Of a stretch of DNA of 64,000 nucleotides, positions 2,862 through 63,111 are shown one piece after another (positions within the stretch are counted from its first letter, which is position 1; each line of letters starts with the position of its first letter). Source of the stretch: Candidatus Gorgyraea atricola (GTDB taxonomy: Bacteria; Omnitrophota; Gorgyraeia; Gorgyraeales; Gorgyraeaceae); the NCBI GenBank assembly GCA_030765235.1, contig JAVCCW010000029.1, positions 311,666-375,665 on the forward strand, read 5' to 3'. The translations under genes were made by a program, and so were the position numbers. Below the pieces are notes generated by a model. That model had not been told where the DNA came from. It searched no databases and saw only the letters and a list, made by a program, of their open reading frames with translations.

Positions 2862-4835
2862 ATGAATAAAGTTTATTTTGCTTTAGGTCTGCATTTTCAC
2901 CAGCCTGTTGGGAATTTTAGTGAGATCTTGGAGCGGGCGTATGAGAAGTGTTATAAGCCATTTCTGGAGGTCTATTCTAAGTATCCTAATATAAAGATGT
3001 CCCTGCATCTCTCTGGTAATCTCCTGGATTATTTTGAGAAAGCGCATCCTGAGTTTTTGGATAAGGTCAAAGCTCTTATTGATCGCGGTCAGGTGGAGAT
3101 CATGGGAGGAGGATATTACGAGCCTATACTACAGGCAATACCGCAGAAGGATAGGGTTGGCCAGATAGAGATGCTTTCAAGGTATTTTGAGAATAGATTT
3201 GGAAAAAGGCCAACTGGCTTGTGGGTGCCGGAAAGGGTATGGTCTCCTGAGATAATACCAGATCTAGCTAAGTGCAACATGAAGTATGCTGTTTTAGATG
3301 ACGCGCATCTAATAAAAGCAGGCGTTAGCGAGGATGATTTATACGGGTATTTCATGACTCAGGACAAGGATACAAAGATCGCTATATTTCCTTCAGACAA
3401 GGCTCTTCGTTACATAATACCTTTCAGGCCGCCCCGCGATACAATAGATTACTTCAGGGACATTGCAAGGAAAAAGACTGCACCGCTATTCATCTATGGG
3501 GATGATGCTGAGAAATTCGGGGAATGGCCTTATACGCATGACTGGGTGTATAAAAAAGGCTGGCTGGATAGTTTTTTTAAAAGCCTTACCAGGAATCAAC
3601 AGTGGATAGAGACGATCAGGTTTTCTGATTACTTGTCGCTATTCCAGCCCCTAAAAGAGCTCCATGTCCCAGAGGCATCTTATGAGGAGATGATGGAGTG
3701 GGCAAATGGATCGTGGATGAATTATTTAGAGCGCTATCCTGAGTCAAATCAGATGCACAAGCGAATGACGCTTATAAGCGAGAGGGTCACAGGCCTGGTT
3801 AATAGCCCGCACTTTGAAGCTAACAGGAATAAGGTTATAGAGGCGAGAAGGGAATTATATAAAGGCCAGACTAATTGCCCGTACTGGCACGGTGTATTTG
3901 GTGGGATCTACATGCATCATTTAAGGGGCGCAGTGTACGAGCATCTTATAAATGCGGACAGGATCTGCGACGAAGTAGAGGAAACATATCAAAATGGCTC
4001 TGTCAATACAAGGGATATTGATTTTTACAATGATGGCAATAGCACTGTGATCTGCGAGAACAAGGATTTTTTTCTATGCATAGATCCTGCGAGCGGAGGC
4101 GTTATAAGGGAACTGGACTATAAGCCAAGGTCAGTTAATTTTGTAAATACGCTTGCAAGACGTAAAGAATCTTATCATACGAAGATTTTGGAAAGGATCA
4201 ATAATAAGGTCACTGAGCCGCTCGCGATCCAAGAGGCTATTAAGAAGGTGGATCCCAGGATCAAGAAGGGGATTTTTTATGATAAGTTCAAGAGGGCGTG
4301 CCTGGTGGATCATTTTATAGATAAGGATCTGGAGAAGAATGATTTTGCGGATTGTAATTATGCTGATGATGGAGATTTTGCAGAGGGCCGCTATAATGTT
4401 GCGGAAGAAGAAGGCAGAGTTCTTTTGTCGCGCACAGGAAAACTCGGAGATAAATCAATAGAGGTTATGAAGGCGGTTTCTCTTTCGTCTGCTAAAGAAG
4501 TGGGGATTGTTTACACTTTGAAGAATAAGAGTAGCTCTAGAATCAATACATGTTTTGGCACAGAGCTAAACATAGCTATGCCCGGCGGCGAGACTGATAA
4601 GTTCGTAAGATCCGGCAATGCGTTTTCTGTAAAGGATGCGCAAGGCGCGCTGGAGCTTGATTTTATATTTTCCAAAAAGCCAGACAAGTTCTGGCACTTT
4701 CCAGTCCACACAGTCTCCCAATCAGAACGCGCGTACAGCCTGAGCTACCAGTCCCTGTGCATTTTCCCGATCTGGAACATAAAACTAGGCGCAGGAGAAG
4801 AATTCGAATTTTCCATAAGACTGATCGTGGTATGA
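2862..4835 (+). CDS. glycoside hydrolase family 57 (alpha-glucan-acting: amylase / branching enzyme / glucanotransferase type)
   Basis: N-terminal MNKVYFALGLHFHQPVGNF (the HQP motif of GH57); 657 aa; sits next to glgA. Confidence 0.8.
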   Translation: MNKVYFALGLHFHQPVGNFSEILERAYEKCYKPFLEVYSKYPNIKMSLHLSGNLLDYFEKAHPEFLDKVKALIDRGQVEIMGGGYYEPILQAIPQKDRVGQIEMLSRYFENRFGKRPTGLWVPERVWSPEIIPDLAKCNMKYAVLDDAHLIKAGVSEDDLYGYFMTQDKDTKIAIFPSDKALRYIIPFRPPRDTIDYFRDIARKKTAPLFIYGDDAEKFGEWPYTHDWVYKKGWLDSFFKSLTRNQQWIETIRFSDYLSLFQPLKELHVPEASYEEMMEWANGSWMNYLERYPESNQMHKRMTLISERVTGLVNSPHFEANRNKVIEARRELYKGQTNCPYWHGVFGGIYMHHLRGAVYEHLINADRICDEVEETYQNGSVNTRDIDFYNDGNSTVICENKDFFLCIDPASGGVIRELDYKPRSVNFVNTLARRKESYHTKILERINNKVTEPLAIQEAIKKVDPRIKKGIFYDKFKRACLVDHFIDKDLEKNDFADCNYADDGDFAEGRYNVAEEEGRVLLSRTGKLGDKSIEVMKAVSLSSAKEVGIVYTLKNKSSSRINTCFGTELNIAMPGGETDKFVRSGNAFSVKDAQGALELDFIFSKKPDKFWHFPVHTVSQSERAYSLSYQSLCIFPIWNIKLGAGEEFEFSIRLIVV

Positions 4836-23811: not shown

Positions 23812-24084
23812 ATGAGCAAAGTAACAGTTAAAAAGCCCACCAAGGAAGAGCTGCAGAAGTTAGGCGTGGACAAATGGCCTACATGGACGAGTGAGGTAAA
23901 GAAATTTGACTGGGAATATAGCGACAACGAGACATTTTATGTGCACGAAGGCAAGGTAAAGGTAATCATAACTGACGGCCAGGAAGTCGAATTCGGCAAA
24001 GGCGACCTCGTAACATTCCCCAAAGGCGTAAAATGCACATGGGACGTAAAAGAATCTATCCGTAAGGTCTATAATTTCGGATAA
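23812..24084 (+). CDS. cupin-domain small protein (DUF861-like)
   Basis: ~90 aa with FPKGVKCTWDVKESIRKVYNFG C-terminus typical of small cupins; start moved to ATG 23812 with GGGGGA Shine-Dalgarno; the upstream extension is the hairpin. Confidence 0.55.
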   Translation: MSKVTVKKPTKEELQKLGVDKWPTWTSEVKKFDWEYSDNETFYVHEGKVKVIITDGQEVEFGKGDLVTFPKGVKCTWDVKESIRKVYNFG

Positions 24085-24087
24085 GTT

Positions 24088-24191
24088 AACCCCATTCCAA
24101 ATTCTGAGTGACGCGTAATTTATTTTTTGGAACTACTTGCGTGCAATTCTTAAAGATTATTTGATGATCTTTAAGAATTTGGAACGGGGTT
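24088..24191. mobile_element. MITE-like element, ~104 bp, terminal inverted repeats AACCCCATTCCAAATTC / GAATTTGGAACGGGGTT
   Basis: TIRs seen directly; internal palindrome aattcttaaagat...atctttaagaatt; related TIRs at 47.5 and 47.85 kb. Confidence 0.5.
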
Positions 24192-24247
24192 CAATTCGTA
24201 CAGTGAGTTACGAAAATCAGAGATTTCCGTAACTCAGGTGCTCATTG

Positions 24248-24301
24248 AAATGCACCTGGGATGTAAAGCAACCCATCCGCAAAGTCTATAACTTTGGATA
24301 A
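24248..24301 (+). pseudogene. duplicated, diverged fragment of the 3' end of the cupin gene (KCTWDVKQPIRKVYNFG*)
   Basis: ~80% nt identity to 24031-24084 including the stop codon; lies just beyond the MITE-like element. Confidence 0.45.
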
Positions 24302-24346
24302 CTTTACATTTTAGGTCTTGCTTTAAATGTAAAGTTATGTTATAAT
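24296..24346 (+). promoter_or_regulatory. inverted repeat AACTTTACATTT-N13-AAATGTAAAGTT containing the 25-mer AGGTCTTGCTTTAAATGTAAAGTTA, followed by an extended -10 TGTTATAAT
   Basis: 25-mer repeated exactly at 44679-44703 (uvrA 5' UTR); half-site shared with the inverted repeat at 27220-27262. Confidence 0.4.
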
Positions 24347-24354
24347 CTTTTTGA

Positions 24355-25605
24355 GTGCAAGGAGATATGGCCATGGAAGCATGGTCATATTGTGTCTGGG
24401 TTATGATGGGAATTAGAAAAGTTTATTATATAGCAGTAATATTGATGCTAATACTAATGTTAACATCAGGTGATGCGGTCTGTCTAGGCTCCCTCAGGCC
24501 ATACATGCAGCTTGAAAAAGGTAAGAACAAAGAAATTAATCTAGATAAAGTTTCTTTGAGCGAGACAGAAGAGGTCGTTGAGGAATTTGACAATTTAGTT
24601 AGACTTAATATGAACTTTGAACCGGATAATGAAAAGCAGGATTATGGCAGCAAACCTCGATCAATGTTAATTCAACTTGTCAATGATTGGAGGAATTGGG
24701 AGTCAAATGAGAGACGTATTTTGGATTTATCATGTCATTTGTTGGGGATAGAAAATATTTTAGAATTCAAAACTATCAGACCCATTAAACCCATTATCCT
24801 TGCCGGTGGAAGAGGGTCAAGAGCAAATAATAAAGCCAAAGTTTTAGAGAGAGTCGACGGAAAGTCGACCATAATGCATATTTTAAATAATATTTTAATC
24901 CTAAAAAAGAGCAACCTGGGATTTCAGATCGAAATAGAGAAACCTCTAATTGTGGTTAACTATGAAAATGCAGAGTTAATAGCAAATGCTTTAAAGGGTT
25001 ATGAAGTTGAATATTTTATAGAAGAGAAGCCACTTGGCACAGGTAAAGGCGTATTAGAGACAGAAGAGCTTACGAGAGATTTTAAAGGCGATGTCTTAGT
25101 TTATTTAGGTGCCAGACCATGTGTATATACACCTAGTATTTTAAAGAGCATTCTTATACATCAGGCTATAGAATTTTCTTCCATGACGCTTATCACAACT
25201 GTAGTAAAAAAACCTTATGCACCGCTTGTAAGGGATCCAGAAAATAGTTTTGTGATTGATAGTGTAGAGACACACTTGGAAAAAGCGAAAGCACCTCCTA
25301 TAGGCGAGAGCAATATAGGTGTTTATCTTGTAAGGAAGCAGGATCTATATTGGCCGTTACATGAAGCACATAATGAATTATATAATGCTGCTGATAATAC
25401 TTACAAGTGGCCGGGAGAGCTAGGATTTGTCAATCAGATGGTACGCAGGTTAGCTGCAGAAGATAGACTAGTAATCAGTTTACCCTTGGCTAATACTGAA
25501 GAGGGGTCCGGTATTAGATTCGCAGGTGATAGTCATGCAATGCACATATCAAGAGAACATTTATTAACATCCATTAAAAGCATTGCTCCGCGGTATGGAT
25601 TATAG
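24355..25605 (+). CDS. exported/membrane-anchored protein with conserved N-terminal leader + sugar-nucleotidyltransferase-like domain
   Basis: leader MMGIRKVYYIAVILMLILMLTSGDAVC...LRPYMQLE; ILAGGRGSRANNKAKVL and KPLGTGKGV resemble G-x-G-T-R / LGTGHA motifs of GlmU/RmlA-type NTP transferases; true start may be ATG 24409. Confidence 0.5.
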   Translation: MQGDMAMEAWSYCVWVMMGIRKVYYIAVILMLILMLTSGDAVCLGSLRPYMQLEKGKNKEINLDKVSLSETEEVVEEFDNLVRLNMNFEPDNEKQDYGSKPRSMLIQLVNDWRNWESNERRILDLSCHLLGIENILEFKTIRPIKPIILAGGRGSRANNKAKVLERVDGKSTIMHILNNILILKKSNLGFQIEIEKPLIVVNYENAELIANALKGYEVEYFIEEKPLGTGKGVLETEELTRDFKGDVLVYLGARPCVYTPSILKSILIHQAIEFSSMTLITTVVKKPYAPLVRDPENSFVIDSVETHLEKAKAPPIGESNIGVYLVRKQDLYWPLHEAHNELYNAADNTYKWPGELGFVNQMVRRLAAEDRLVISLPLANTEEGSGIRFAGDSHAMHISREHLLTSIKSIAPRYGL

Positions 25606-25625
25606 AAAAACCTGGGAGCCATTTT

Positions 25626-27185
25626 ATGATAACTATTAGAAAAGTTTATTATATAGGACTAATATTTACGCTAATAGCAATGTTAGCGGCAGGTGATGTG
25701 GTCTGCGCCCAAGACCTGCTCAGGCCGTATATGCAGCTTGAAGCAAAAACAAAGAAGCCCAACAGGCGGCAGAGGATTTTGGGGGAGAATGAGAAAGAGG
25801 TTGAGTATTTAGGGAAGATAGCAACTGCAGCTAGTAGGGGTGAAAATGCGCTGGAGGGAAAAGCAAGGATGTTGTTTGAGAGATTGACTGAAGATCCTGA
25901 GTCTGATTTGCTGGATACAGTAGAATTCGATAAAAGATTTATTACTTGGTTTTATGCTGTATTTAATCCTTATGAGCCAACAAAAGTGGCAAAGGAATAT
26001 TTAGAAAAATATCCCGGCATATTTAATCAGAGTTACGATAATGATGTCGCCAAGATAAAAAGTTTATTTAAAAGAATATTTCATGCTGCAGCATTAAAGG
26101 AATTAGACTTGTCAAAGAAAAATATCAAAGAATTAGAGCAATATATGATTCTACATAGTGATTCTCTGTCAATGAGAGGTGAAAAAATAGAGAAAATGTC
26201 CAAGTTGCTTAAAACAGGCAAGCCTAAATCCCATAAAGAGATTTTTTATAAATATTGTAGTATCATTTATCGTTTTTATGAAGAGACCTGTACATGGAAT
26301 AAGGAGATTTCAGGGCCAGCTGATTTTGATCGATATGGTGATGAATATGGATTAAATGGAGGATTGCCGTACCTTGCTTTTATGGAAAGATATAGAAAAG
26401 AGCATAATTTAATGGAGATTCATCGCTGGCTAGAAATTGGCAAAGCAAGATATTGTATACTTAATAATAATATTCCCATGGTAATTGAAATATTTGAAAG
26501 ACTATCTGAGGCTTGTGAGTACGATGTCAATTCCCCTATCCGCCAGACGCTTTTGTGGACGTATAAAAACGGCCTGCCTGGCCTTGGCCAGATAGTGGAA
26601 GAGCTGGGTATGGATGGGATTTGTGTTGAGGAAATAGGTATGCTTATGGAGCAGCTTTCGGATTTTTTAGATAATAAGGAAGAACTGGTTGATATGCCAG
26701 AACCCATATATGATGTATTAATAAAGGGACACTTAGGCAGACTAATAGAAGTAGAGAGTTTGAATGTCGTAGGTATTACAGCATTAAAGCAGACAAAAAA
26801 TCACCTTAAAAGTGTTATTATGGATGAATACTTGACTGAAAAGGAAAAGCTTTCTATTATTAATGACTGGATTTCTGGCCTAAAGATAGCTTTTAGAGAC
26901 TATAGAAATATAGTAAAAGTATTTTTAAACACGAATGTGCTTTTAAAATGGGCAAAGTTATTGGCAGAAAGCAAAAACGAAGATAAAAATAAAACCGCTC
27001 AAATGCTTAAAGATGAAGATTTCAGGAATAGGTTTATGCGGATTATGAGTGAATATCTACAACTGGTTAATCACGTACAGCAAAGTTTTAATGAAATCAT
27101 CCCCTATTTCCAAATGCGCTTGGAGATGGAGCAAGGGGTGGGGGAGGTTTTGGAGTCTAATGGGGCTGTGGAGGTGGCGATTTAA
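25626..27185 (+). CDS. hypothetical 519-aa protein sharing the N-terminal leader of the preceding gene; remainder alpha-rich, no recognised domain
   Basis: MITIRKVYYIGLIFTLIAMLAAGDVVCAQDLLRPYMQLE aligns with residues ~19-57 of the upstream protein; the rest is unrelated. Confidence 0.5.
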   Translation: MITIRKVYYIGLIFTLIAMLAAGDVVCAQDLLRPYMQLEAKTKKPNRRQRILGENEKEVEYLGKIATAASRGENALEGKARMLFERLTEDPESDLLDTVEFDKRFITWFYAVFNPYEPTKVAKEYLEKYPGIFNQSYDNDVAKIKSLFKRIFHAAALKELDLSKKNIKELEQYMILHSDSLSMRGEKIEKMSKLLKTGKPKSHKEIFYKYCSIIYRFYEETCTWNKEISGPADFDRYGDEYGLNGGLPYLAFMERYRKEHNLMEIHRWLEIGKARYCILNNNIPMVIEIFERLSEACEYDVNSPIRQTLLWTYKNGLPGLGQIVEELGMDGICVEEIGMLMEQLSDFLDNKEELVDMPEPIYDVLIKGHLGRLIEVESLNVVGITALKQTKNHLKSVIMDEYLTEKEKLSIINDWISGLKIAFRDYRNIVKVFLNTNVLLKWAKLLAESKNEDKNKTAQMLKDEDFRNRFMRIMSEYLQLVNHVQQSFNEIIPYFQMRLEMEQGVGEVLESNGAVEVAI

Positions 27186-44578: not shown

Positions 44579-44678
44579 CATCTTTAATATGCGAGCAATA
44601 GTAATAATCCTGGCATTTGTACTCCTTTTTATATTCCAGATAAATACTGTAGTAAGCGTAGATTTATGGCGGATCCTA

Positions 44679-44703
44679 AGGTCTTGCTTTAAATGTAAAG
44701 TTA
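44679..44703 (+). promoter_or_regulatory. 25-mer AGGTCTTGCTTTAAATGTAAAGTTA, 7 nt upstream of uvrA start; identical copy at 24313-24337
   Basis: exact repeat; contains the near-palindrome CTTTAAATGTAAAG. Confidence 0.4.
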
Positions 44704-47500: not shown

Positions 47501-47863
47501 GTAACCCAAAAGCAGGCCTGCCTGCCCCGTACCAAATCGACCTGCCCCGTATCTTGCCGAAGGCAATGGTATGGGGAGATTTTGGTATGGGGGTCGCTCA
47601 GGGGAAAATTTCCCCATCCAGTATTGTGTGGCACGGGGTGTCCTGTGAGTGGGCCCCTCCGCCCGGTGTGGATCCTCCCACTCACAGGACACCCCGCGCC
47701 ACACTTATCCCATAAAAGGCTAAATTTTCAATTCGCCTGCCCCGTTCCAAATTCTTAAATATCAGCAAACAATCTATTAGAATTGTACGCGATTAGTTAC
47801 AAATAATAAATAGCTTATCTATCAGAATTTGGAACGGGGCTCCCAGGCCTCCTTTTGGGTTAC
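47501..47863. mobile_element. ~360-bp non-coding element with ~38-bp terminal inverted repeats (GTAACCCAAAAGCAGGCCTGCCTGCCCCGTACCAAAT ... GAATTTGGAACGGGGCTCCCAGGCCTCCTTTTGGGTTAC) and a GC-rich structured core
   Basis: TIRs seen directly; inner TIR portion (CCCCGTTCCAAATTC) matches the 24088-24191 element; core has a long hairpin gtggcacggggtgtcctgtgagtggg...cccactcacaggacaccccgcgccac. Confidence 0.5.
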
Positions 47864-47989: not shown

Positions 47990-48757
47990 ATGAGGAAGAT
48001 TGGAAAAGGGTATAAACTCATTCTAATATCTATACTAATGGGGGGGGCGTTTTTATCGTCGACTCTTGCCTACCCAGTGTATGGCTTTAACCTAAGACCA
48101 GCACTTAAGTTTCAAGGTCAAAACTCTCTTGGTGAAAATTTACAAAAACTTCGTGATACAGCGGGAAAAATTGACGATGAAATTAGTAAAATTTTTATCT
48201 GCGCAGAAACGCTTTCCGAGGGCATTTCTGCGCCAAATTACTTTCATGATAAATGCATTAAAAACGAGATGTTAATCCTTGAGAAAGGTAAAAAACGTAT
48301 TTATTTAACGCGACAATTAGCTCATCTACTAGGACATTTGTTAAATGAAGTTTCTTTGTTAATTAATCATACAGTGACCAAAGATATAGCAATGCGTTAT
48401 ACAATCAGTATATGCAGAAAATTAGATGTTCTTGCAAGACTAAAAGAAAAAGATTTAATGTTAAGGTTGTTGCAAGGTAACGAAGTATTCAATATATTAG
48501 GTTATCCACCAAATAAAGGACGTATACCAAAAATAGAAAATCGTGATGCCGTTATTTCAAAAGCTCGTGAGTTAATAACTGTGTTTAAAAATGAAGTCAT
48601 AAAGGACGAGCTGTTTGAGCTAGTAAGACTCTGTGACAGAGATCCAAATTTAGTTTTGAAGAAATGGTACGGAAACGAAAATGAGGTAGCTTCAAATTCC
48701 AATATTTCTTATAAGGTAAACTTTGGTTCGGATGAAATTCATAGAACAGGATTGTGA
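47990..48757 (+). CDS. hypothetical secreted protein
   Basis: signal peptide MRKIGKGYKLILISILMGGAFLSSTLA; LRP tripeptide just after the predicted cleavage site, as in the 24355/25626 leaders; AT-rich gene. Confidence 0.5.
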   Translation: MRKIGKGYKLILISILMGGAFLSSTLAYPVYGFNLRPALKFQGQNSLGENLQKLRDTAGKIDDEISKIFICAETLSEGISAPNYFHDKCIKNEMLILEKGKKRIYLTRQLAHLLGHLLNEVSLLINHTVTKDIAMRYTISICRKLDVLARLKEKDLMLRLLQGNEVFNILGYPPNKGRIPKIENRDAVISKARELITVFKNEVIKDELFELVRLCDRDPNLVLKKWYGNENEVASNSNISYKVNFGSDEIHRTGL

Positions 48758-54689: not shown

Positions 54690-56303
54690 ATGAATAAGAA
54701 TCTCCTGGCTATTACAAAACAGGTAGTAGGTCTATATGTAAGTAATGATACTGTAGATCTCGTTGTGCTTAAGGGGACCTTAAAAGGTCCAAAACTTGTT
54801 AAGTTTGGCCAGACAGCTATATATCCAAAGAAACAAGAAGCTCAGGCAGCAGTGGTCGAGTCTCAGGATGATGCTGCGCCTTTGGCAAGCAAGCTCTCCC
54901 AGCAAAAGACGGAAGAAAAAACCAGGGATGACTATGTAGTCGAGGCTATACAAAGAGTTTTCAGGGACAACAATGTCAAGCCAGGTAATGTAGTCACTGC
55001 TATTTCGAGCGAAGAAACAATGGTGCGCTATTTTCAAATGCCGAAGATACCAAAACAGGAATGGTCATCAGCAATAAATTTTGAGGCAAAGCGCTATATC
55101 CCTTTCCGCATGGAGGATGTGGCTTCAGATTTTCAGGTGATAAAAGGGTCGTCTTCCGATAGCAGTATGGATGTTGTATTTGCCGCAGTGAAGCAAAAGG
55201 CAATAGCAGACTTTGTAAGCCTGATCGAACGCGCAGGCGTGAAACCTGTTATTGTAGAACCATCGCCTTTTAGTCTTATAAGGGCCTTTAATGCAGCTGA
55301 ACAGATAAGCAATAAGGTAAATACCGCAATCGTCAATATAACTACGAATTCAGCAAATATAACCATACTTAGAAACGGAGTCCCATATATAATTAGAGAT
55401 ATTCCTCTTGACGAGAGCGCCCCGGGCGATGGCTCGCTTGATCCTGTATTTGAAAAGCTCCTTTCTGAGATAAGGTTGTCATTTGATTTTTATGAGAAGC
55501 AATTTCCATCAGAGGTGATCGACAAGATAATCATCTATAGCCAATTACCCATTGAGAACTGGCATGAATTAGTAGGCAAGGAACTGCAGATACCTGTAGA
55601 GGTTGGTGATCCGCTGAGGGGGGTAAGGGTTAAAAAAGATATAGTGCCTCCTAAACTCGCTATTGCCTTTGGCCTTGCGCTCAGAGGTCTTTCAGAAACT
55701 TTTATAGGAGTGAATCTATGTAAAGAAAGGCTGCTTGTTTATAAGCATAAAGAGATATTCTTAAGGACCGCATTTCTCGAGGCGTCTGCTGCAATATTGT
55801 TGCTGATAATATTAAGGGTGATATGCATGAAGATGATAGCCCCGCTTCCAAAGGAGCTCGATCGTACTTTATCTGAAAGGCCAAAGGTCGAGGTCAATAT
55901 AAAGGATAGTTCTATAGATACTTTAGAGAGAATGAAGAATGAGATGGAGGCAAAGAGGCATTTGATGGAGAATATCATCTTGAGCAGGACATATTTTACG
56001 GATAGATTAGTAGAATTAGCAGAGTTGATACCCAAGGACGTATGGCTTACTGAGATAGATTTTGAAGAGAAGATAGATAAAAAGAATGTGTCTAAGATTT
56101 CCAGAAGGCTCAGTCTCAGAGGCTACTGCATAATCGGCGAGAATAAAAATGAGGCAGATACTGTCAATAATTTTTTGATAGATTTAAAACAGAGTACTGC
56201 CATACAGAATGGTATGACGAGGGCGGATATCGTGTCTGTTGAGAAGACAGAGATACGAGGAGAAGGGGCAGCGAGTTTCGAGATATTATTCATTGGCCCG
56301 TGA
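54690..56303 (+). CDS. pilMN: type IV pilus assembly PilM-PilN fusion protein
   Basis: actin-like PilM N-terminus (FEAKRYIPFRMEDVASDFQV); C-terminal IGVNLCKERLL + TM helix + coiled-coil region typical of PilN; 537 aa. Confidence 0.7.
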   Translation: MNKNLLAITKQVVGLYVSNDTVDLVVLKGTLKGPKLVKFGQTAIYPKKQEAQAAVVESQDDAAPLASKLSQQKTEEKTRDDYVVEAIQRVFRDNNVKPGNVVTAISSEETMVRYFQMPKIPKQEWSSAINFEAKRYIPFRMEDVASDFQVIKGSSSDSSMDVVFAAVKQKAIADFVSLIERAGVKPVIVEPSPFSLIRAFNAAEQISNKVNTAIVNITTNSANITILRNGVPYIIRDIPLDESAPGDGSLDPVFEKLLSEIRLSFDFYEKQFPSEVIDKIIIYSQLPIENWHELVGKELQIPVEVGDPLRGVRVKKDIVPPKLAIAFGLALRGLSETFIGVNLCKERLLVYKHKEIFLRTAFLEASAAILLLIILRVICMKMIAPLPKELDRTLSERPKVEVNIKDSSIDTLERMKNEMEAKRHLMENIILSRTYFTDRLVELAELIPKDVWLTEIDFEEKIDKKNVSKISRRLSLRGYCIIGENKNEADTVNNFLIDLKQSTAIQNGMTRADIVSVEKTEIRGEGAASFEILFIGP

Positions 56304-56307
56304 TATT

Positions 56308-56856
56308 ATGAAAAAACCTGCGACCAAAAAAATAAGCAAGACCCTTATACTGACTGCAGTAGTAGTTGTCGTCACGCTGTTTATCGGTATAGTATTTATT
56401 TTTATACCGTTTTTAAGTAAAAGCAGGTCCTTTAGGGCTGATATATTGCAGGAAAGGGACAGAAATATTCTTATTGGCACAGTGAGGGCGCTTGACAAGC
56501 ACCTGAAGGTTTACGAAAAAAGGCTGCCAGAAGGAAGGGGTGTTTCATGGCTTTTGAGCCAGATCTCTGATATGGCGGCAGAAGAAGGCATAGATATGGC
56601 TTCTATAAAACCAGGTACGCCAGAGAAAAGAGGCCTATACACTAAATTATATGTAGAAATGGATATTACCTCTACGTATCATCAGCTTGGCAGGTTTATA
56701 TCTAAGGTTGAATCGTCAGAGAAATTCTTAAGAGTCGAACGTATCAATACAAAGAGGCTTGACGAGAATGCGGATTTTGAGGCAGGCGATTCAAAGGTCA
56801 AGGCCTTTGACACGAAGTCACACATTGTGATCAGCATGGTAGTTTTAAAGGAATAA
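56308..56856 (+). CDS. pilO: type IV pilus assembly protein PilO
   Basis: N-terminal TM helix and periplasmic domain; position after pilMN; start ATG 56308. Confidence 0.55.
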   Translation: MKKPATKKISKTLILTAVVVVVTLFIGIVFIFIPFLSKSRSFRADILQERDRNILIGTVRALDKHLKVYEKRLPEGRGVSWLLSQISDMAAEEGIDMASIKPGTPEKRGLYTKLYVEMDITSTYHQLGRFISKVESSEKFLRVERINTKRLDENADFEAGDSKVKAFDTKSHIVISMVVLKE

Positions 56857-56857
56857 A

Positions 56858-57343
56858 ATGGCTGAGATGAATCTGAAAAAACAACAGATAGAATATATAG
56901 GCGTAGGCGCTCTTGTGCTTGTGGCGCTTTTAATCGGCCTTACAAGGTTTAAGAAGGGCGACAACAATGACGAGGTTTTTTCCAGAAAGGAATTTAATGA
57001 GAAGTGGGCCGAGGTAGAGGTATTAGAGGCAAAGGTTCCGGAAGAGGAAAGCGGCGTGGCTTATTTAGCTGGAACAGGAAGGGTGCCGTTCAAGAGTCCA
57101 TTGGAGGAAGAGGCAGTAAGCGTGGAAGATGAAAGCGCGATTCTTCCTGAGATGAAGTTTCAGGGCATGGTGTGGAGCAGCATAAGGCCGCAGGCTATAA
57201 TAGATGATAAACTTTATGATGTGGATGATGTAATAGAGGTAGGTCTGGGAGAGACCAAATCTCAAGTTAAAATTAAAGATATTACCAGGACTGGAATACG
57301 TTTAAGGTTTAAGGGTAAAGATTTTATTGTTAGGCCCAAATAA
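56858..57343 (+). CDS. type IV pilus assembly protein PilP-like
   Basis: small protein with N-terminal anchor immediately upstream of the secretin; assignment mainly by position. Confidence 0.4.
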   Translation: MAEMNLKKQQIEYIGVGALVLVALLIGLTRFKKGDNNDEVFSRKEFNEKWAEVEVLEAKVPEEESGVAYLAGTGRVPFKSPLEEEAVSVEDESAILPEMKFQGMVWSSIRPQAIIDDKLYDVDDVIEVGLGETKSQVKIKDITRTGIRLRFKGKDFIVRPK

Positions 57344-57357
57344 CAAAGGAGGTCATT

Positions 57358-58746
57358 ATGAAGATAGTAAGACTTATCATCGCCATTATATTTAGTATTT
57401 TTATGTCATCATCTTCGATTGCTGCGAAAGTAGGGGCAAGTCCTGGAAACCTGATTTCCATGGATTTTCAGGATGCAAATCTAAAGACTGTCCTTAAGTT
57501 ATTTTCACAACAATCAGGACTTAATTTTGTCGCAGGCCAGAATATAAAGGCCAGGACAGTCACGATTTATTTTGATGGTGTCACAGTGGAAGATGCCTTG
57601 AATCATATTATGAGCGCAAATAACCTTGTCTATGAACAAGAGCCTGGCAGTAATATATTTATAGTCAAGGAATCCGTGAAACCAAAGGTCGAGACATTGA
57701 CTAAGATATACGAGTTAAAGTATGCGCAGTTAGCACCTCCTCCGACAGAAGCAGGGGAATCAAAACAGGACGCGGAGATAGTTAAAGTTATAGAGGACAT
57801 TCTGAGTAAAGATGGCAAGGTTATAGCTGATAAAAGATCCAACAGCCTTATTATAAAGGAGATGCCGAGCCAGTTTGCTATTATTGAGGATGTGCTGGCA
57901 AGGCTTGATGTAAGGACATCTCAGGTCATGATAGAGGTGGAGATAATAGAGACTACAACAACTGTTGCTGATAGATTGGGCATACAATGGTCAGGTACGT
58001 TTGGTGCATACGCAGGTCCTGCGTTGACTACCAGGTGGCCTTTAAAGGGAGCGCTTGTAGATAAGGATCTTATCACAGGAACTGGCGGCACCATGACTTT
58101 CGCTAGTACTACTGCTACGATGAGGGCTATATTGAGCGATACAGATTCCAGAGTTTTGGCAAGACCCAAAATACTTACATTGAATAATGAAACAGCATTG
58201 ATAGAACTTACTGCTCAGACAGCTGTTGCCAGTATGACGAGTACTACAGATACTGGCTCTACGTCAACCACATCCACTCAGGCAGAGAGGATAGATACAG
58301 GCATAACATTAGAGGTCACACCACAGATAAATAAAGGTGGTTATATCACTATGCATATAGAGCCCACTGTTATAGTGCCAGTATTGTCAACGTATTTCAC
58401 GACAGAAGGCAGCAAATTTGTAGATCCACAGAAAAGAAGCGCGAAGACTACGGTTATGGTCAGGGATGGCGAGACCATTATTATAGGAGGCTTGATATCC
58501 AGGGAAGATAGCTATGGAAAGACCAAGATCCCGTTTCTTGGGGATCTACCTTTAATAGGAGCTGCATTTCGTTATAAATCCAAGGATGAATTAGATAAAG
58601 AACTCTTGATATTTATCACACCTCATGTAGCGGATGACAGCGCATATAAGCTGGCAAATATCTCTGAGCGCGAACAGGAAAAACCAAAGGCTGTGAGAGA
58701 AAAAGAGATAAAGACGATATTAGATCTATTAGGGGAAGAAAAATAG
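57358..58746 (+). CDS. pilQ: type IV pilus secretin PilQ
   Basis: secretin C-terminal signature GDLPLIGAAFRYKSKDELDKELLIFITPHV; signal peptide. Confidence 0.8.
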   Translation: MKIVRLIIAIIFSIFMSSSSIAAKVGASPGNLISMDFQDANLKTVLKLFSQQSGLNFVAGQNIKARTVTIYFDGVTVEDALNHIMSANNLVYEQEPGSNIFIVKESVKPKVETLTKIYELKYAQLAPPPTEAGESKQDAEIVKVIEDILSKDGKVIADKRSNSLIIKEMPSQFAIIEDVLARLDVRTSQVMIEVEIIETTTTVADRLGIQWSGTFGAYAGPALTTRWPLKGALVDKDLITGTGGTMTFASTTATMRAILSDTDSRVLARPKILTLNNETALIELTAQTAVASMTSTTDTGSTSTTSTQAERIDTGITLEVTPQINKGGYITMHIEPTVIVPVLSTYFTTEGSKFVDPQKRSAKTTVMVRDGETIIIGGLISREDSYGKTKIPFLGDLPLIGAAFRYKSKDELDKELLIFITPHVADDSAYKLANISEREQEKPKAVREKEIKTILDLLGEEK

Positions 58747-58747
58747 A

Positions 58748-60463
58748 ATGAGAAAGTCCAAGGATAAGTTGGGGCAAATATTACTTAACGAGAAGATCGT
58801 AACCGAGGAGCAGCTTAGAAAGGCCGTCGAGGTACAAAGGAAGGAAGGCGCAAAACTCGGTGACGTTCTGGTAAATCTTGGGCTTGTATCTGAAAAAGAT
58901 ATTGTGGTTGCGCTGGCAAAACAGTTAGCTATACCTTACGCGTCTTACTCTAAGGGACTCCTCAAGCCTACGGAAGGCCAGGATCTTGAAAAAGTAATAC
59001 CTGAAGAATATGCCCGCAGGCACATGCTTCTGCCTATTTCAAAACACCTGGATTCTCTTACCATTGCTTTTGTTGATCCTTTGGATTTAATTGCAATAGA
59101 CAATCTCAGACACATGACAGGATGCGAAATAAATCCTATTATAGCGACAAAATCCGATCTTCAGAGGGCCATCGACGAATTTTACGGAAGAGAGGACTTG
59201 CTTAAGGACGCAATAAGCGGTTCGTATGACCTCGAGGAATTTAAGACAGAAAAAATAAAAGAAGAAGATAATCTCAGCCTTGATGATTTGATCGCGCGCG
59301 CAGAAGAGGCGCCAGTGGTCAAGCTGGTCGATCTATTGCTTATGCAGGCCATAAAAGACAGGGTGAGTGATATACATATAGAGCCGTTTATGAACAAGAT
59401 AAATATAAGATACAGGATCGACGGCGTGCTTTATGAAATACCGCCTCCGGCAAAACATCTTATTTCTGCCATTGTTTCAAGGGTAAAGATACTGGCTAAT
59501 CTTGATATAGCAGAGAGGCGGCTTCCTCAGGACGGGGCGTTTTTAGTAAAGGTAGAGAACAAGGGCATTGATATACGTGTTTCAACAGTACCTGCTATCT
59601 ACGGCGAAAAGGTCGTTATGAGGATACTGGATAAGTCAGCGACTCCTTTGGATTTAAATCGCCTTGGCTTTGAGCCAAAGGCGCTTGAGAATTTTAAAAA
59701 GGCTATAAAGAGTCCGCATGGTTTGATCCTGGTGACAGGTCCGACAGGAAGCGGAAAGACCACCACACTTTATGCTGCCTTAAATGAGATCAAGAGTCCG
59801 CGTCAGAATATTTCTACGGTCGAGGATCCTGTGGAATATAAGATCGAGGGTATAAATCAGGTCCAGATAAAACCTTCTATAGGTCTGACATTCGCTGCTG
59901 CGCTCAGGGCATTTTTAAGGCAGGACCCTGATGTTATAATGGTAGGAGAGGTGAGAGATCTTGAGACTGCTCAGATATGCATACGGGCATCACTTACAGG
60001 ACATCTTGTTTTAAGCACGCTCCATACCAATGATGCGCCTAGCGCTATATCAAGGCTAATAGATATAGGTATCGAACCTTACTTGATAAGCTCTTCTTTG
60101 CTTGTTGTAGGCGCGCAAAGACTAGTGAGAAAATTGTGCCCTGAATGCAAGGAGGCGTATGAAACTCCGCCCAATCTAATAAGAGACTTTAAGCTAAAAC
60201 AGGAACTTTTATATAAGCCAAAGGGTTGTGCTGCGTGTAGTCACACAGGTTACAGGGGAAGGATAGCTATTTATGAGGTAATATTACTCAATGATAGACT
60301 AAAGGAATTAGTTTCAAAGGGCGCAGGCCTGGGCGAACTTAAGAAGGTAGTCAGGGAGATGGGCATAAGATCTCTTGTAGATAGCGGTATTGAAAAAGTA
60401 GAAGCCGGAGTTACCAGTATAGAGGAAGTATTGAGTATAGCAATGGTGGCAGGGGGAGAATAA
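58748..60463 (+). CDS. pilB: type IV pilus assembly ATPase PilB (GspE family)
   Basis: Walker A GPTGSGKTTTLYA, Asp box, tetra-Cys motif CPEC...CAAC. Confidence 0.9.
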   Translation: MRKSKDKLGQILLNEKIVTEEQLRKAVEVQRKEGAKLGDVLVNLGLVSEKDIVVALAKQLAIPYASYSKGLLKPTEGQDLEKVIPEEYARRHMLLPISKHLDSLTIAFVDPLDLIAIDNLRHMTGCEINPIIATKSDLQRAIDEFYGREDLLKDAISGSYDLEEFKTEKIKEEDNLSLDDLIARAEEAPVVKLVDLLLMQAIKDRVSDIHIEPFMNKINIRYRIDGVLYEIPPPAKHLISAIVSRVKILANLDIAERRLPQDGAFLVKVENKGIDIRVSTVPAIYGEKVVMRILDKSATPLDLNRLGFEPKALENFKKAIKSPHGLILVTGPTGSGKTTTLYAALNEIKSPRQNISTVEDPVEYKIEGINQVQIKPSIGLTFAAALRAFLRQDPDVIMVGEVRDLETAQICIRASLTGHLVLSTLHTNDAPSAISRLIDIGIEPYLISSSLLVVGAQRLVRKLCPECKEAYETPPNLIRDFKLKQELLYKPKGCAACSHTGYRGRIAIYEVILLNDRLKELVSKGAGLGELKKVVREMGIRSLVDSGIEKVEAGVTSIEEVLSIAMVAGGE

Positions 60464-60475
60464 GGAGCGCAAGAT

Positions 60476-61699
60476 ATGCCGTTTTTCAAGTATGTAGCGC
60501 GGGATAAAACTGGGAAGTTGACAGAGGAGACTATAGAGGCTGCTTCTGAAGCAGCACTCTTGAATTCATTACAGGCAAGAGGGCTTTTTGTTGTTTCTAT
60601 TGGCTCAGCTGCACAAGTAAAGCATGTAAAAAAGATGAAAAGGCGTTATCATCGCGGGGTCAAGACAGCTGATCTCATAATGTTCTCTAAGGAGCTGGCC
60701 ACGCTTTTAAGTGCAGGAGTGACTCTTATAAAGAGCCTGGATATATTATGCAAGCAGATAGAGTCGCAGCTTTTGCTGAGGGCCGTGGAAACTATAAAAA
60801 AGGATGTTGAAGGAGGTTATACATTTCAGAATGCATTAAGGAAGCACAACAAGATCTTTTCTGAGTTTTGGATCCATCTTGTTGAGACAGGAGAGGCCAG
60901 CGGTCATTTGCCTGTCAGCCTTGAACAGCTCGCAGGATACCTGGAAGAGAGCGCGTCGCTAAAAAGAAAGATCACATCGGCCATGATCTATCCAATAATA
61001 CTTATTTGTGTTGCAGTTGGCGCTATAGCGATATTTTTACTCAAGATCATCCCTATATTTTCTGAGATATTCAAGGGGTTTAACGTTGAGTTACCTTTAC
61101 TTACTCAAATGGTGATCATGGCGAGCAATATTGCGAGAAAGTATTTTTTAATCGTCGCTGGGATGGTGGTGGCACTATTTTTTATTCTCAAGAAATATGT
61201 ATCTACAAAAGCAGGGAGATGGCAGTTTGACAGTATTAAGCTAAAATTGCCTTTGATAGGACCGTTAATACAAGAGATAGCAACGGAGAGATTTGCAAGC
61301 GGCCTGGCAACTCTTCTTAAGAGCGGGGTTCCTATATTGCATGCCCTTGAGATCGCTGAAAAGACAGCAGGTAATAAATTAATGGAACAAGCGCTTAGAG
61401 ACGTAAAGACATCTGTAAGGGATGGTAAGGGCATGGCGCAGACCATGCAGGAGAGTGCCTTATTTTCTCCGCTTGTGGTTCAGATGATAGGTGTGGGGGA
61501 GGAGATAGGGGAGCTAGGCAAGATGCTGGACAGGATATCCGCATTCTATAAAGAACGGGTCAATACCTTTATTACGAGACTTACAACGATGTTTGAACCA
61601 CTGGTCCTGGTTTTTATGGGTATAGTGGTAGGTGTTCTTGTCGTGGCAATGTTTCTGCCCATATTCGGCATATCCAGCGCTATAAAAAGCTCTGGTTGA
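60476..61699 (+). CDS. pilC: type IV pilus inner-membrane platform protein PilC (GspF family)
   Basis: two T2SSF repeats; 407 aa. Confidence 0.9.
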   Translation: MPFFKYVARDKTGKLTEETIEAASEAALLNSLQARGLFVVSIGSAAQVKHVKKMKRRYHRGVKTADLIMFSKELATLLSAGVTLIKSLDILCKQIESQLLLRAVETIKKDVEGGYTFQNALRKHNKIFSEFWIHLVETGEASGHLPVSLEQLAGYLEESASLKRKITSAMIYPIILICVAVGAIAIFLLKIIPIFSEIFKGFNVELPLLTQMVIMASNIARKYFLIVAGMVVALFFILKKYVSTKAGRWQFDSIKLKLPLIGPLIQEIATERFASGLATLLKSGVPILHALEIAEKTAGNKLMEQALRDVKTSVRDGKGMAQTMQESALFSPLVVQMIGVGEEIGELGKMLDRISAFYKERVNTFITRLTTMFEPLVLVFMGIVVGVLVVAMFLPIFGISSAIKSSG

Positions 61700-61716
61700 C
61701 ATAAAAAGAAAAAAGA

Positions 61717-61744
61717 TTTGACTTAATACTGTTTTAATGTATAC
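61717..61744 (+). promoter_or_regulatory. sigma70-type promoter TTGACT-16-TATACT upstream of the first pilin gene
   Basis: hexamers read directly; AGGGGGAG Shine-Dalgarno follows. Confidence 0.45.
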
Positions 61745-61774
61745 TTTATTTATAAAAACGAAAGGGGGAGTAAC

Positions 61775-62197
61775 ATGAGAAGTAAAGGTTTTACGCTGGT
61801 AGAAGTATTGATAGTCGTTATCATCATAGGTATCCTCGCTGCCATAGGCATACCGCAGTTTTCAGCTGCTATGGAAAAAGCAAAAGGCGGTGAGGCAAGG
61901 GCAGGCCTGGGGCATATACAGACCGCAGAAAAGATTTATTTTGCAGAAAACGACGCATATATTGGTGAACTTGGGGATACTAGTCTAGATTCATTACCGA
62001 TCAGTGCCTTAGATTTGACTTTGACTCAGAAATACTGGACCTTTACAATTGACGTACCAGGCGAGAATGAAGATGGCGGTGCAACTGGCTACACGGCAAC
62101 TGCGACAAGGAAAGGTGGATCCACAGCCTATCAAAATGACACTATTATGATGGACAACACCGGAGAGATAGGCGGAACTTGGGATTTTATTAATTAG
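61775..62197 (+). CDS. type IV pilin (prepilin-type N-terminal cleavage/methylation domain)
   Basis: MRSKGFTLVEVLIVVIIIGILAAIGIPQF class III signal. Confidence 0.8.
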   Translation: MRSKGFTLVEVLIVVIIIGILAAIGIPQFSAAMEKAKGGEARAGLGHIQTAEKIYFAENDAYIGELGDTSLDSLPISALDLTLTQKYWTFTIDVPGENEDGGATGYTATATRKGGSTAYQNDTIMMDNTGEIGGTWDFIN

Positions 62198-62261
62198 GGT
62201 ATGTTAAATAGGGCATGATCCGTTCTCAAACAACGGGGCATGTTATGCAAGGAGAAAGATT

Positions 62262-62675
62262 ATGACAAAAAGAGGTTTTACCCTTTTAGAGGTTCTTATT
62301 GTCGTTATCATCATAGGTATACTTGCTGCGATTGCCTTGCCACAGTATACAAGCACCCTTGAGAAGGCAAAATCAGCCGAAGCCTTAACTGGATTAGGGT
62401 CTCTTAGGAGCTCTATGGATCGATATTGGTATGATCAGATGGCTACATCTGCATATACGCAGTTAAGCGGCGCTGCCGGGGTAGATAGTTTAGATGTGGA
62501 GGTTGATGTTACAACGTGGACTTATACTATAGATGATGCCGGCGATACAGACGGCAGAGATTATGTTATACAGGCAACTAAAGGTGATTTTTGGATAGAT
62601 ATAGATGAAGACGGGAATACTGCCAAGTCTACGAATTTGGGAGGGGATGGTACTGGGTTAAGTACAGGCAGCTAA
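62262..62675 (+). CDS. type IV pilin paralog
   Basis: MTKRGFTLLEVLIVVIIIGILAAIALPQY. Confidence 0.8.
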   Translation: MTKRGFTLLEVLIVVIIIGILAAIALPQYTSTLEKAKSAEALTGLGSLRSSMDRYWYDQMATSAYTQLSGAAGVDSLDVEVDVTTWTYTIDDAGDTDGRDYVIQATKGDFWIDIDEDGNTAKSTNLGGDGTGLSTGS

Positions 62676-62693
62676 AAAAGAGCCAATTGATAT

Positions 62694-63101: not shown

Positions 63102-63111
63102 GTAATCAATA

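Follow-up and report, generated by a model that had tools for sequence, protein, structure and literature searches.

Two adjacent genes with a common leader

In a 64,000-nucleotide stretch of the Candidatus Gorgyraea atricola metagenome-assembled genome (phylum Omnitrophota, contig JAVCCW010000029.1; the whole stretch is referred to as the window), a cupin gene and rplM enclose two adjacent open reading frames (ORFs) of the + strand, ORF1 and ORF2 (Table 1). Both of them, as well as a third gene of the window, ORF3, are annotated as hypothetical proteins. The sole likeness between the ORF1 and ORF2 products is an N-terminal leader of 38-39 residues, which follows the common pattern MxxIRKVYYIxxIxxLIxMLxxGDxVC...LRPYMQLE. 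Leaders of the same type head unrelated proteins elsewhere in the window and in other Omnitrophota. We propose that the leader is probably a lineage-specific Sec-type export or sorting cassette that has been shuffled onto diverse enzyme bodies.

In the pairwise alignment of the two leaders, 25 of the 38 aligned residues were identical (hand count), and the leader DNA showed 79.5% identity over 117 nt, beginning at the ATG and ending after the QLE codon. Sequence comparisons of both proteins found no similarity past approximately residue 60. An earlier note on this DNA had claimed that the two ORFs share a leader and then diverge, and this claim stands in both parts. Among four copies of the LRPYMQLE codons (window ORF1, window ORF2, L001a, and L004), the differences were all synonymous, which indicates constraint at the protein level. 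The same note had called the gene pair markedly AT-rich. The AT-richness is real but moderate, with a GC content of 36.7% for ORF1, 36.5% for ORF2, and 36.6% for the pair against 42.3% for the window; at third codon positions, ORF1 and ORF2 had 31-35% GC against 42-54% in neighbouring genes. The C-terminus of the cupin, IRKVYNFG, resembles the IRKVYYI of the leader; the codons differ, and the likeness was treated as coincidence.

Table 1 Features of the window and of related contigs discussed in the text.
Feature	Position	Strand	Description
MITE-like inverted-repeat element	24088..24192	.	~210 nt upstream of ORF1; absent from related contigs
Candidate promoter of the ORF1-ORF2 unit	24318..24346	+	TTGCTT, 17-nt spacer, TGTTATAAT (extended -10); read from sequence
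Leader-cassette 5' untranslated region	24367..24402	+	stem-loop 24367-24388, U-rich tract, UGGGUU next to AUG
ORF1	24403..25605	+	400 aa; NCBI annotation 412 aa from 24367
ORF1 leader	24403..24516	+	38 aa; basic n-region MMGIRK, 17-residue uncharged span, GDAVC, LRPYMQLE
Segment without counterpart in relatives	24519..25623	+	ORF1 linker, nucleotidyltransferase-like body, stop, 20-nt spacer; from blastn against L001-L003 and alignment
ORF2	25626..27185	+	519 aa; all-alpha, rare Omnitrophota family "domain X", core ~aa 43-350
ORF2 leader	25626..25742	+	39 aa; MITIRK, 17-residue uncharged span, GDVVC, LRPYMQLE
MITE-like element, second copy	47739..47840	.	~150 nt upstream of ORF3
ORF3	47990..48757	+	255 aa; same leader type, MRKIGKGYKLILISILMGGAFLSSTLAYPVYGFNLRPAL; leader nt 47990-48106; profile match
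Type IV pilus/T2SS-like cluster	54690-64000		PilM-PilN fusion, PilO, T2SSB-like, secretin, T2SSE, T2SSF, pilins
AbiEii/HTH site in relatives	L001 2459-3699; L002 8041-9281; L004 4637-5927		AbiEii nucleotidyltransferase toxin and XRE-type HTH gene
MITE, miniature inverted-repeat transposable element; T2SS, type II secretion system; HTH, helix-turn-helix.

Leaders of the same type on unrelated proteins

The third leader-bearing gene of the window, ORF3, lies 22 kb from ORF1 and ORF2. It matched the leader profile with E=5e-11 and was absent from every training set. No family or PDB match was found for ORF3, and its body showed no similarity to ORF1, ORF2, or any related locus retrieved. A cross-validated profile, trained on the leaders of other genomes only and without any window or Gorgyraea sequence, was run against the 294 ORFs of the window and returned ORF3 (3.8e-11), ORF2 (4.3e-5), and ORF1 (5.9e-5), with the next match at 0.022. 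Ordinary signal peptides of the same loci were not matched by the leader profile. In addition, the DNA motif TGGRTTATGANNNNNATTRGAAAAG occurred twice in the window, at ORF1 and ORF3, against 0.00 expected. The leader match is far beyond chance. The next-best match of the cross-validated profile is a small ORF at 44592-44700 (+), directly upstream of uvrA, which could be a leader remnant or a chance hit.

Leader-bearing genes were also found in other Omnitrophota loci, in or beside genes of the family to which ORF2 belongs, denoted here as domain X. In locus L007, a Ser/Thr-kinase-like gene (Pfam Pkinase, 43.3 bits with a cut-off of 31.7) starts with MRKIRKVYNV...SLRVPL and ends in a stop codon that overlaps with the beginning of the domain-X gene directly downstream. 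The leader of this second gene, MKTLHKITNI...FLRPFL, is very unlike that of the adjoining kinase. The L007 pair has the layout of ORF1 and ORF2, reached independently, and the enzyme-plus-partner arrangement suspected in the earlier note, a leader-bearing enzyme followed by a leader-bearing ORF2 homolog, does recur. In L011, a locus of another Omnitrophota genome, six genes around a GDSL-lipase/domain-X fusion have M-x-x-I-G-K-G-Y...AYS...LR[VLP][PLA] starts; one of the six encodes a class-I S-adenosylmethionine (SAM) methyltransferase, and the cluster includes at least five unrelated hypothetical proteins. The domain-X protein P0014 consists of the leader, 400 unassigned residues, and then domain X. 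Furthermore, two adjacent giant genes in L012, of 3,063 and >3,280 aa, start with MLxFRxSYNLRV...AYG...HLR[TP]HL.

When the first 55 residues were removed, the leader proteins showed no mutual similarity except for domain X and one C-terminal module. This module, of 213 residues, is shared at 40% identity by P0011 (L011 8001-10655) and the protein of L011 15462-17003 and is absent from other domain-X proteins, which provides direct evidence of module shuffling within the L011 cluster. A single leader type is found on mutually unrelated bodies in several Omnitrophota genomes. The reusable N-terminal module of the earlier note is thereby extended to ORF3, a kinase, a SAM methyltransferase, hypothetical proteins, and giant proteins, and we consider it very probable that the leader functions as an N-terminal module common to these proteins.

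A scan of a genome collection for the strict Gorgyraea-type leader returned L004 alone, the patterns being too narrow for the IGKGY/LRVP variants. The cassette DNA motif had zero matches in viral contigs, giving no sign of phage carriage. One leader-bearing protein of 246 aa (L011 11601-12341) had a sub-threshold Pfam match to NleE (E=0.0026, 17.8 bits with a cut-off of 27), which is only a hint of likeness to this type III effector cysteine methyltransferase.

ORF2 and the domain-X family

The description of ORF2 in the earlier note as an alpha-rich protein without a known motif agrees with our searches. No match to ORF2 was found in Pfam, NCBIfam, and PADLOC scans, and its AlphaFold2 model is wholly alpha-helical (predicted local distance difference test (pLDDT) 78.9, predicted template modelling score (pTM) 0.79). 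The leader and LRPYMQLE region had low confidence in the model, with values of <50 for residues 16-44, and this fits a linear motif rather than a part of the fold, although it is no proof of one. No structural relatives of the model were found beyond generic helix bundles, and a PDB profile search with the ORF2 family gave only a faint TPR-like stretch.

The domain-X family is very small: a word-indexed search returned three sequences, and an exhaustive search of 1.84 billion cluster representatives returned 19. ORF2 belongs to it, matching the 18 other representatives with E-values from 1e-4 to 1e-106. Its motifs in the family alignment are FGxGDE[HY] (FGxGDEH in ORF2), IGxARxxIL, and LLWMxxNGLxGxxEI. 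ORF1 matches the family via the leader alone (residues 1-63, E=1e-4).

In four related contigs (L001-L004), the gene order is AMP-ligase/acyl carrier protein/acyltransferase, cupin, variable genes, ORF2 homolog, rplM, rpsI, and argC. In all four, the same leader stands at the start of the ORF2 homolog, which is duplicated in tandem in L001, with one copy interrupted by an IS66 element. Homologs at 25-30% identity also retain the basic n-region, the hydrophobic core, and the LR[VPA][PY] motif. A check proposed in the earlier note, that the leader be sought in homologs of related genomes, was therefore positive, and its presence both in syntenic relatives and in distant homologs indicates that the ORF2 family is the native home of the leader, which is conserved more strongly than the body. 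The ORF2 body had dN values of 0.45-0.57, compared with 0.03-0.07 for the flanking genes, and thus evolves roughly tenfold faster at non-synonymous sites; the dN/dS ratio was 0.46 for the ORF2 body and 0.06-0.21 for the flanking genes.

Domain-X genes often adjoin genes for nucleotide-transferring enzymes, in cases too few for significance. P0010 (L008 7490-10969) lies beside a DUF2204 minimal nucleotidyltransferase and an AAA_14 ATPase, and P0006 (L007 357-3160) beside a protein kinase; other neighbours are AbiEii in the Gorgyraea relatives and the GlmU-like nucleotidyltransferase in the window. Domain X is also found in fusions with a GDSL lipase, with a SAM methyltransferase plus HEAT repeats, with GNAT, and in a STAND-NTPase giant.

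The nucleotidyltransferase-like body of ORF1

ORF1 consists of the leader, an unassigned ~90-aa linker, and a domain resembling the N-terminal part of GlmU (aa 129-325, nt 24787-25377). Matches in Pfam, PDB, and NCBIfam over these residues support the earlier description of ORF1 as sugar-nucleotidyltransferase-like. The Pfam NTP_transferase family (PF00483) matched at 23.4 bits, just above its cut-off of 21.2, and GlmU chains in the PDB matched with E=3e-10 (Streptococcus pneumoniae GlmU). The N-terminal half of GlmU in NCBIfam matched with E=4e-18; the best NCBIfam GlmU equivalog scored 65.3 bits against a cut-off of 450, and its N-terminal half alone aligned.

ORF1 retains the GxG[ST]R, K, LGTG, and E..NxGxY motifs of GlmU-type nucleotidyltransferases and carries the L(x)2GxGTxM(x)4PK signature, ILAGGRGSRANNKAKVL being aligned to IILAAGKGTRMKSDLPKVL. 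R140 and K146 align with the catalytic R15 and K22 of GlmU. The position of the metal-binding Asp of GlmU, which we take to be D102 in S. pneumoniae and D114 in Mycobacterium tuberculosis, is occupied by Ala237 in two independent alignments (YLGARP versus IAGDTP/TSGDTP), and the uracil-binding Gln72 of GlmU aligns with a Glu. The Ala at the metal-binding position makes catalytic activity doubtful, and the ORF1 nucleotidyltransferase may be inactive. Compared with GlmU, ORF1 lacks the C-terminal left-handed beta-helix acetyltransferase half and has an extra N-terminal export-type leader and the 90-aa linker. Judged by its scores and by the alignment of the N-terminal half alone, ORF1 is a domain-level member of the NTP_transferase superfamily and not a GlmU. 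Among 5.8 billion proteins, the only match to ORF1 was ORF1 itself, and a single-sequence AlphaFold2 model was unusable (pLDDT 37.6).

Upstream DNA and repeats

The candidate promoter of ORF1 and ORF2 sits within a palindromic 25-mer region. A consensus scan did not list it, its -35 element matching at 3/6 positions. In the relatives, the same stretch is also found 3' of the cupin gene, there upstream of AbiEii. No terminator-like site was found on the + strand from ORF1 to rplM, which, together with the extended -10 site upstream of ORF1, is consistent with co-transcription of ORF1 and ORF2.

The stem-loop of the 5' untranslated region (5'UTR) is predicted in 11 leader genes, with compensatory changes in three of the six pairs. 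The start ATTTTT(A)TGGGTGGATT-ATG-A..-..-ATT-[GA]GA-AAA-G is common, almost base for base, to ORF3, the L007 kinase gene, and the genes of L011. Near-identical cassette DNA is thus found across genomes whose domain-X proteins are ~28% identical, and three of the L011 genes are nearly identical over ~45 nt upstream. It should be noted that TGGGTGGATT-ATG was rejected as a leader-specific element, since rplM is likewise preceded by GGTGGATTATG, and argJ and uvrA by similar contexts; a four-codon upstream ORF and CsrA-type GGA sites, also considered for this stretch, are speculative and form no part of our proposal. The start contexts are GGTGGATT-ATG for rplM (27330), GGGATT-ATG for argJ (29290), and GGGTT-ATG for uvrA (44710). 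These starts have an unusually short spacer behind a Shine-Dalgarno-like sequence, an arrangement that seems widespread in the Gorgyraea atricola genome.

Several repeats surround the leader genes. The MITE-like element noticed earlier is real and has two copies in the window, with the terminal inverted repeats GCCCCGTTCCAAATTC...GAATTTGGAACGGGGC; both copies lie upstream of leader-bearing genes (ORF1 and ORF3). A 25-mer at 24313-24337, which the earlier note had reported as common to the region upstream of ORF1 and to uvrA, has a second, exact copy at 44679-44703, located 7 nt upstream of the uvrA start codon. It represents one arm and the loop of a palindrome, TAACTTTACATTT...AAATGTAAAGTTA (24298-24338). 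The palindrome is found inverted before rplM in L001 (10046-10084), and a similar stem, AACTTTACA/TGTAAAGTT, precedes a giant gene in L012 (~3265-3310). This distribution suggests a dispersed hairpin resembling repetitive extragenic palindromic (REP) elements rather than a dedicated promoter. Rfam searches at the gathering score found nothing in the window and, near ORF3, nothing but hairpin look-alikes. A long GC-rich hairpin downstream of uvrA (47624-47704) resembled only miRNA-precursor-like Rfam models, below threshold, and is a generic long hairpin.

The cupin gene has its final ~54 nt in duplicate, with a copy in use at 24031-24084 and a displaced copy at 24247-24301 that is closer to the relatives. 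Between the two copies lie the MITE-like element and a hairpin with a 15-bp stem (24204-24236). The duplication has the appearance of an insertion that carried with it a substitute for the gene end it displaced.

Rearrangement of the cupin-rplM site

In the relatives, an AbiEii nucleotidyltransferase toxin gene and an XRE-type HTH gene lie between the cupin gene and the ORF2 homolog (Table 1). The L001 site also carries a phosphoribosyltransferase gene, an IS66 transposase gene, and a broken second ORF2 copy. The cupin-rplM site is a variable hotspot. No AbiEii or HTH genes or remnants of them were found in the window. The earlier note had asked whether the gene pair is absent elsewhere. It is not so for ORF2, which is present at the cupin-rplM position in four related contigs, and only ORF1 is unique to this genome.

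The origin of ORF1 can be read from its 5' end. Over the 35 nt before the ORF1 start codon and over the leader, identity to the corresponding 5'UTR and leader of the ORF2 homologs in L002 and L004 is 80-86%, and this homology to the relatives' ORF2-family start ends past the QLE codon. In the leader-region multiple alignment, the region upstream of ORF2 itself is unrelated to the ORF2-family 5'UTR (28% identity). The segment without counterpart in relatives is flanked on both sides by leader copies, which are ~20% diverged at the DNA level. Because its 5'UTR and leader match the relatives' ORF2-family start, the region upstream of ORF2 is unrelated, and its body has no counterpart, ORF1 is a recombinant, in which an orphan nucleotidyltransferase body continues the reading frame of the ancestral ORF2-family start (5'UTR and leader).

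These observations also bear on a narrower explanation, according to which a single local rearrangement put the ORF2 5' end on an incoming nucleotidyltransferase fragment, the leader being functionless on ORF1 and the fusion decaying or neutral. The 5'UTR and leader of ORF1 match the relatives' ORF2-family start in both position and sequence with the nucleotidyltransferase body inserted, ORF1 has no homolog, the Mg-binding Asp of GlmU is replaced by Ala, and the site is a rearrangement hotspot (the doubled cupin 3' end and MITE-like insertion here; AbiE, IS66, and the broken ORF2 copy in relatives), all as such an event would leave them. However, a 400-codon open frame at 37% GC would be unlikely to last by chance, and the ~20% DNA divergence of the leader copies argues that the duplication is not recent. 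Moreover, L007 has the same layout of leader-bearing enzyme and leader-bearing domain-X gene independently, with mutually dissimilar leaders, and the leader heads many unrelated genes elsewhere. We consider a one-off chimera an unlikely explanation of the leader, and it can hold for the origin of ORF1 without contradicting a general function of the leader.

The earlier note had also regarded the pair as a possible defence module. As such, the ORF1 nucleotidyltransferase and its partner would replace the AbiEii/HTH pair and act as a toxin-antitoxin, abortive-infection, or anti-phage system. The relatives' AbiEii (a toxin of nucleotidyltransferase fold) and HTH genes lie directly upstream of the ORF2 homolog, P0010 is flanked by the DUF2204 nucleotidyltransferase and AAA_14 ATPase genes, and the locus is variable and AT-rich. 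On the other hand, ORF1 and ORF2 had no PADLOC match at E<=0.1, while the relatives' AbiEii matched 20 AbiEii models in the same search. The fold of ORF1 is GlmU-type and not Pol-beta-type, the export-type leader on both proteins is unexpected for a cytoplasmic toxin-antitoxin pair, and ORF2 homologs occur in lipase, methyltransferase, GNAT, and giant-protein contexts without nearby defence genes. We found no evidence for a defence system and consider a defence role very unlikely.

Nature of the leader

In its general form, the leader has a basic n-region that carries I-[RG]-K-[VG]-Y, an A/G-Y-S/A/G c-region, and LRxP downstream. The GD[AV]VC that the earlier note took as a hallmark is present in ORF1 and ORF2 and restricted to this one sub-lineage. 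Across 23 leaders, the n-region had a median charge of +2, the uncharged span a median length of 17 residues (range 9-26, c-region included), and the 15-residue flank a median net charge of 0, with LR at residues 27-39; these values agree with Sec-type signals, in which a positively charged n-region is followed by a hydrophobic stretch of about 7-15 (up to about 20) residues and a less positive flank. Such a geometry is that expected of a Sec signal peptide whose N-terminus stays inside while the body is exported. At the putative cleavage site, position -3 is A, G, L, or V and position -1 is S, A, or G in most leaders (AYS, AYA, GYS, LYA, and VYG), and the candidate cleavage sites of ORF1 and ORF2 are LTS|GD and LAA|GD. 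On these grounds we lean towards Sec export with cleavage.

The leader matches none of the specialised signal-family definitions tested. Isolated leaders (n=4) and full-length ORF3 had no match at E<=10 to the NCBIfam signal models (prepilin, YSIRK, KxYKxGKxW, and Tat), and Pfam searches with whole ORF1 and ORF2 gave no signal-domain match at E<=1. As a positive control in the same search, a pilin of the window starting with MRSKGFTLVE matched TIGR02532 at 33.2 bits (cut-off 16.3). The twin-arginine motif is absent from the leaders. A lipobox, [LVI][ASTVI][GAS]C, is likewise absent, [GP]D[AV]VC having Asp at -3 and Val at -1; D-[AV]-V thus precedes the Cys, and most leaders of the family have no Cys, in line with the earlier judgement that GD[AV]VC is no standard lipobox.

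Alternatively, the leader could be an uncleaved signal-anchor that tethers the proteins to the inner membrane, with LRxP in a juxtamembrane position and the enzyme domains possibly cytoplasmic. The dependence of the cargo domains on cytoplasmic cofactors would then be accommodated, as would the Pro that follows AY in some leaders. According to a 2026 preprint (10.64898/2026.06.07.730766), predictions give the majority of long Omnitrophota proteins a membrane anchor and place the bulk of many of them in the cytoplasm, and this points in the same direction. However, the median charges of +2 for the n-region and 0 for the C-flank predict an N-in/C-out orientation with the bodies outside the cytoplasm, an uncharged span with a median of 17 residues, c-region included, is short for a transmembrane helix, and most leaders have a canonical small-x-small site. 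We rate an uncleaved anchor as rather unlikely.

A prepilin-type (class III) signal, cut at I-G-K-G|Y by a prepilin peptidase and followed by display or secretion through the type IV pilus/T2SS-like machine of the window, is least compatible with the data. Several leaders do read xIGKG-Y followed by a hydrophobic stretch, the window encodes a full pilus/T2SS cluster with at least five true pilin genes, and class III signal genes have been reported near Omnitrophota secretion loci (10.1101/2023.11.21.568195), as such a reading would expect. However, ORF1 and ORF2 (RKV|YY), the L007 kinase, and P0014 have Val instead of Gly at the would-be -1 position, and no leader has Glu at +5. The leaders do not match TIGR02532, which the genuine pilin of the window does match, and AY[SAG] and LRxP lie past the hydrophobic core, where pilins have no cleavage site. 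This reading is largely refuted, and we consider it extremely unlikely.

Proposed model and its difficulties

In the export-cassette model that we favour, the start cassette comprises a short 5'UTR (stem-loop, U-tract, and Shine-Dalgarno-like GGRUU beside the AUG) and the N-terminal leader. The leader is built of the basic I-[RG]-K-[VG]-Y n-region, a hydrophobic core of ~12-17 residues, a small-x-small c-region, and LR-x-[P/Y/L] 4-12 residues further on. Being of Sec type and probably cut by signal peptidase I, it would take the proteins out of the cytoplasm, and LRxP, then near the new N-terminus, may serve as a second-step sorting, docking, or processing signal. ORF1 and ORF2 would be co-transcribed and reach the same destination, as enzymes and their domain-X partners may do in general.

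New members of the set would arise by recombination at the conserved leader DNA. In the window, ORF1 is such a product, its orphan nucleotidyltransferase body (24519-25623) having come to lie behind the ancestral start of the ORF2-family gene, which keeps a second leader copy. The conserved cassette DNA offers a substrate for homologous recombination, by which ORF1, the insert in P0014, and the module shuffling in L011 would all be accounted for.

Several points weigh against this model. Cleavage and topology are predictions by hand rules. Three leaders read AYP/VYP, in which Pro would block cleavage at that bond, and in ORF1 and ORF2 the aromatic residue follows V instead of G, and AY[SAG] is missing. 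The GGTGGATTATG/GGTGGATT part of the 5' motif is the genome's ribosome-binding context. ORF1, without a homolog or the catalytic-metal Asp, could be a young non-functional chimera. All leader examples from outside the window lie in or beside domain-X genes, which introduces an ascertainment bias. The main difficulty is that the kinase, methyltransferase, and nucleotidyltransferase domains need ATP, SAM, and nucleoside triphosphates, which are not expected outside the cytoplasm. The cofactor difficulty would disappear if the enzymes acted inside another cell, if the leader were an uncleaved anchor with an unexpected topology, or if some cargos, such as ORF1, were inactive. Omnitrophota are uncultivated nanobacteria proposed to be mostly predators or parasites (PMC10066038), and action inside another cell fits this lifestyle.

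A more specific and tentative form of the model regards the leader as a two-step secretion tag of the Omnitrophota. After Sec export, the LRxP N-terminus would be recognised by the T2SS/type-IV-pilus-like machine that is conserved in the phylum or by a dedicated processing enzyme, and the tag would mark the effectors that these host-dependent nanobacteria deliver onto or into prey or host cells. These effectors would be the kinase, methyltransferase, nucleotidyltransferase, lipase fusions, domain-X proteins, and giants of several thousand residues; domain X, encoded next to the enzymes or fused to them, would serve them all as co-effector or adaptor. On this reading, an export signal on cytoplasm-type, cofactor-dependent enzymes would make sense. 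The pilus/T2SS cluster of the window, in which at least five genes have canonical KGFTL[VLT]E prepilin leaders, is a possible second export step by proximity only. We consider the two-step tag possible, though doubtful.

Giant proteins and secretion loci of the Omnitrophota are under active study, and in the literature searched we found no description of a common export tag in the phylum, which is no proof that none has been published. Rather than a local peculiarity, the leader seems to be a lineage-specific export tag that has so far gone undescribed. If this is true, a sequence-recognisable leader would provide a computational handle on the proteins that leave the cell and would define a candidate effector set for a phylum without a genetic system. 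It would also raise the testable question of whether a linear motif, LRxP, acts past Sec export; to our knowledge, T2SS-type systems have no counterpart of such a motif. Furthermore, the ORF1 fusion points to recombination at a conserved UTR-plus-leader cassette as a route to new exported proteins.

Comparison with known systems

In function, the closest parallels to the leader include the YSIRK-G/S and KxYKxGKxW signals, which are Sec signal peptides of Gram-positive surface proteins with a motif in or next to the basic n-region and are thought to steer a particular secretion route or site. YSIRK (TIGR01168/PF04650) and KxYKxGKxW (TIGR03715) are, like the leader, common to unrelated exported proteins of one lineage. 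The leader differs from them in its motif (I-[RG]-K-[VG]-Y / GKGYxxK), in its host phylum, the Omnitrophota being diderms related to the Planctomycetes-Verrucomicrobia-Chlamydiae group, and in the additional LRxP motif past the c-region. Its cargo also consists of cytoplasm-type enzymes, in contrast to the wall-anchored adhesins of the Gram-positive systems.

Lipoproteins are sorted by residues that follow the processing site, namely the Lol-avoidance residue at +2 and, in Bacteroidota, an export signal past the lipobox Cys. In these signals, a short stretch past the peptidase site sets the destination, similar to the role suggested here for LRxP, but the leader has no lipobox and mostly no Cys. 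Class III prepilin signals (TIGR02532) resemble the leader in the short basic n-region, which ends in Gly in some leaders and is followed by a hydrophobic helix, and their cognate machinery is encoded in the genome. They differ from it in that ORF1 and ORF2 lack Gly at -1 and no leader has Glu at +5.

Constant 5' ends with variable mature parts are found in the Erp/Mlp upstream homology boxes of Borrelia and in Vlp/Vsa of Mycoplasma, where the 5'UTR and leader are constant, and polymorphic toxin and effector systems likewise combine constant trafficking ends with swappable enzymatic domains. The leader proteins differ from such multigene or polymorphic families in that they are not lipoproteins and no immunity genes were recognised. 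Their bodies are a kinase, a methyltransferase, a nucleotidyltransferase, a lipase fusion, and giants, and not antigenic variants or nuclease or deaminase toxins. As in these families, however, the bodies of the leader proteins evolve fast and their modules are shuffled, as seen in P0011 and L011_15462, in the P0014 insert, and in ORF1.

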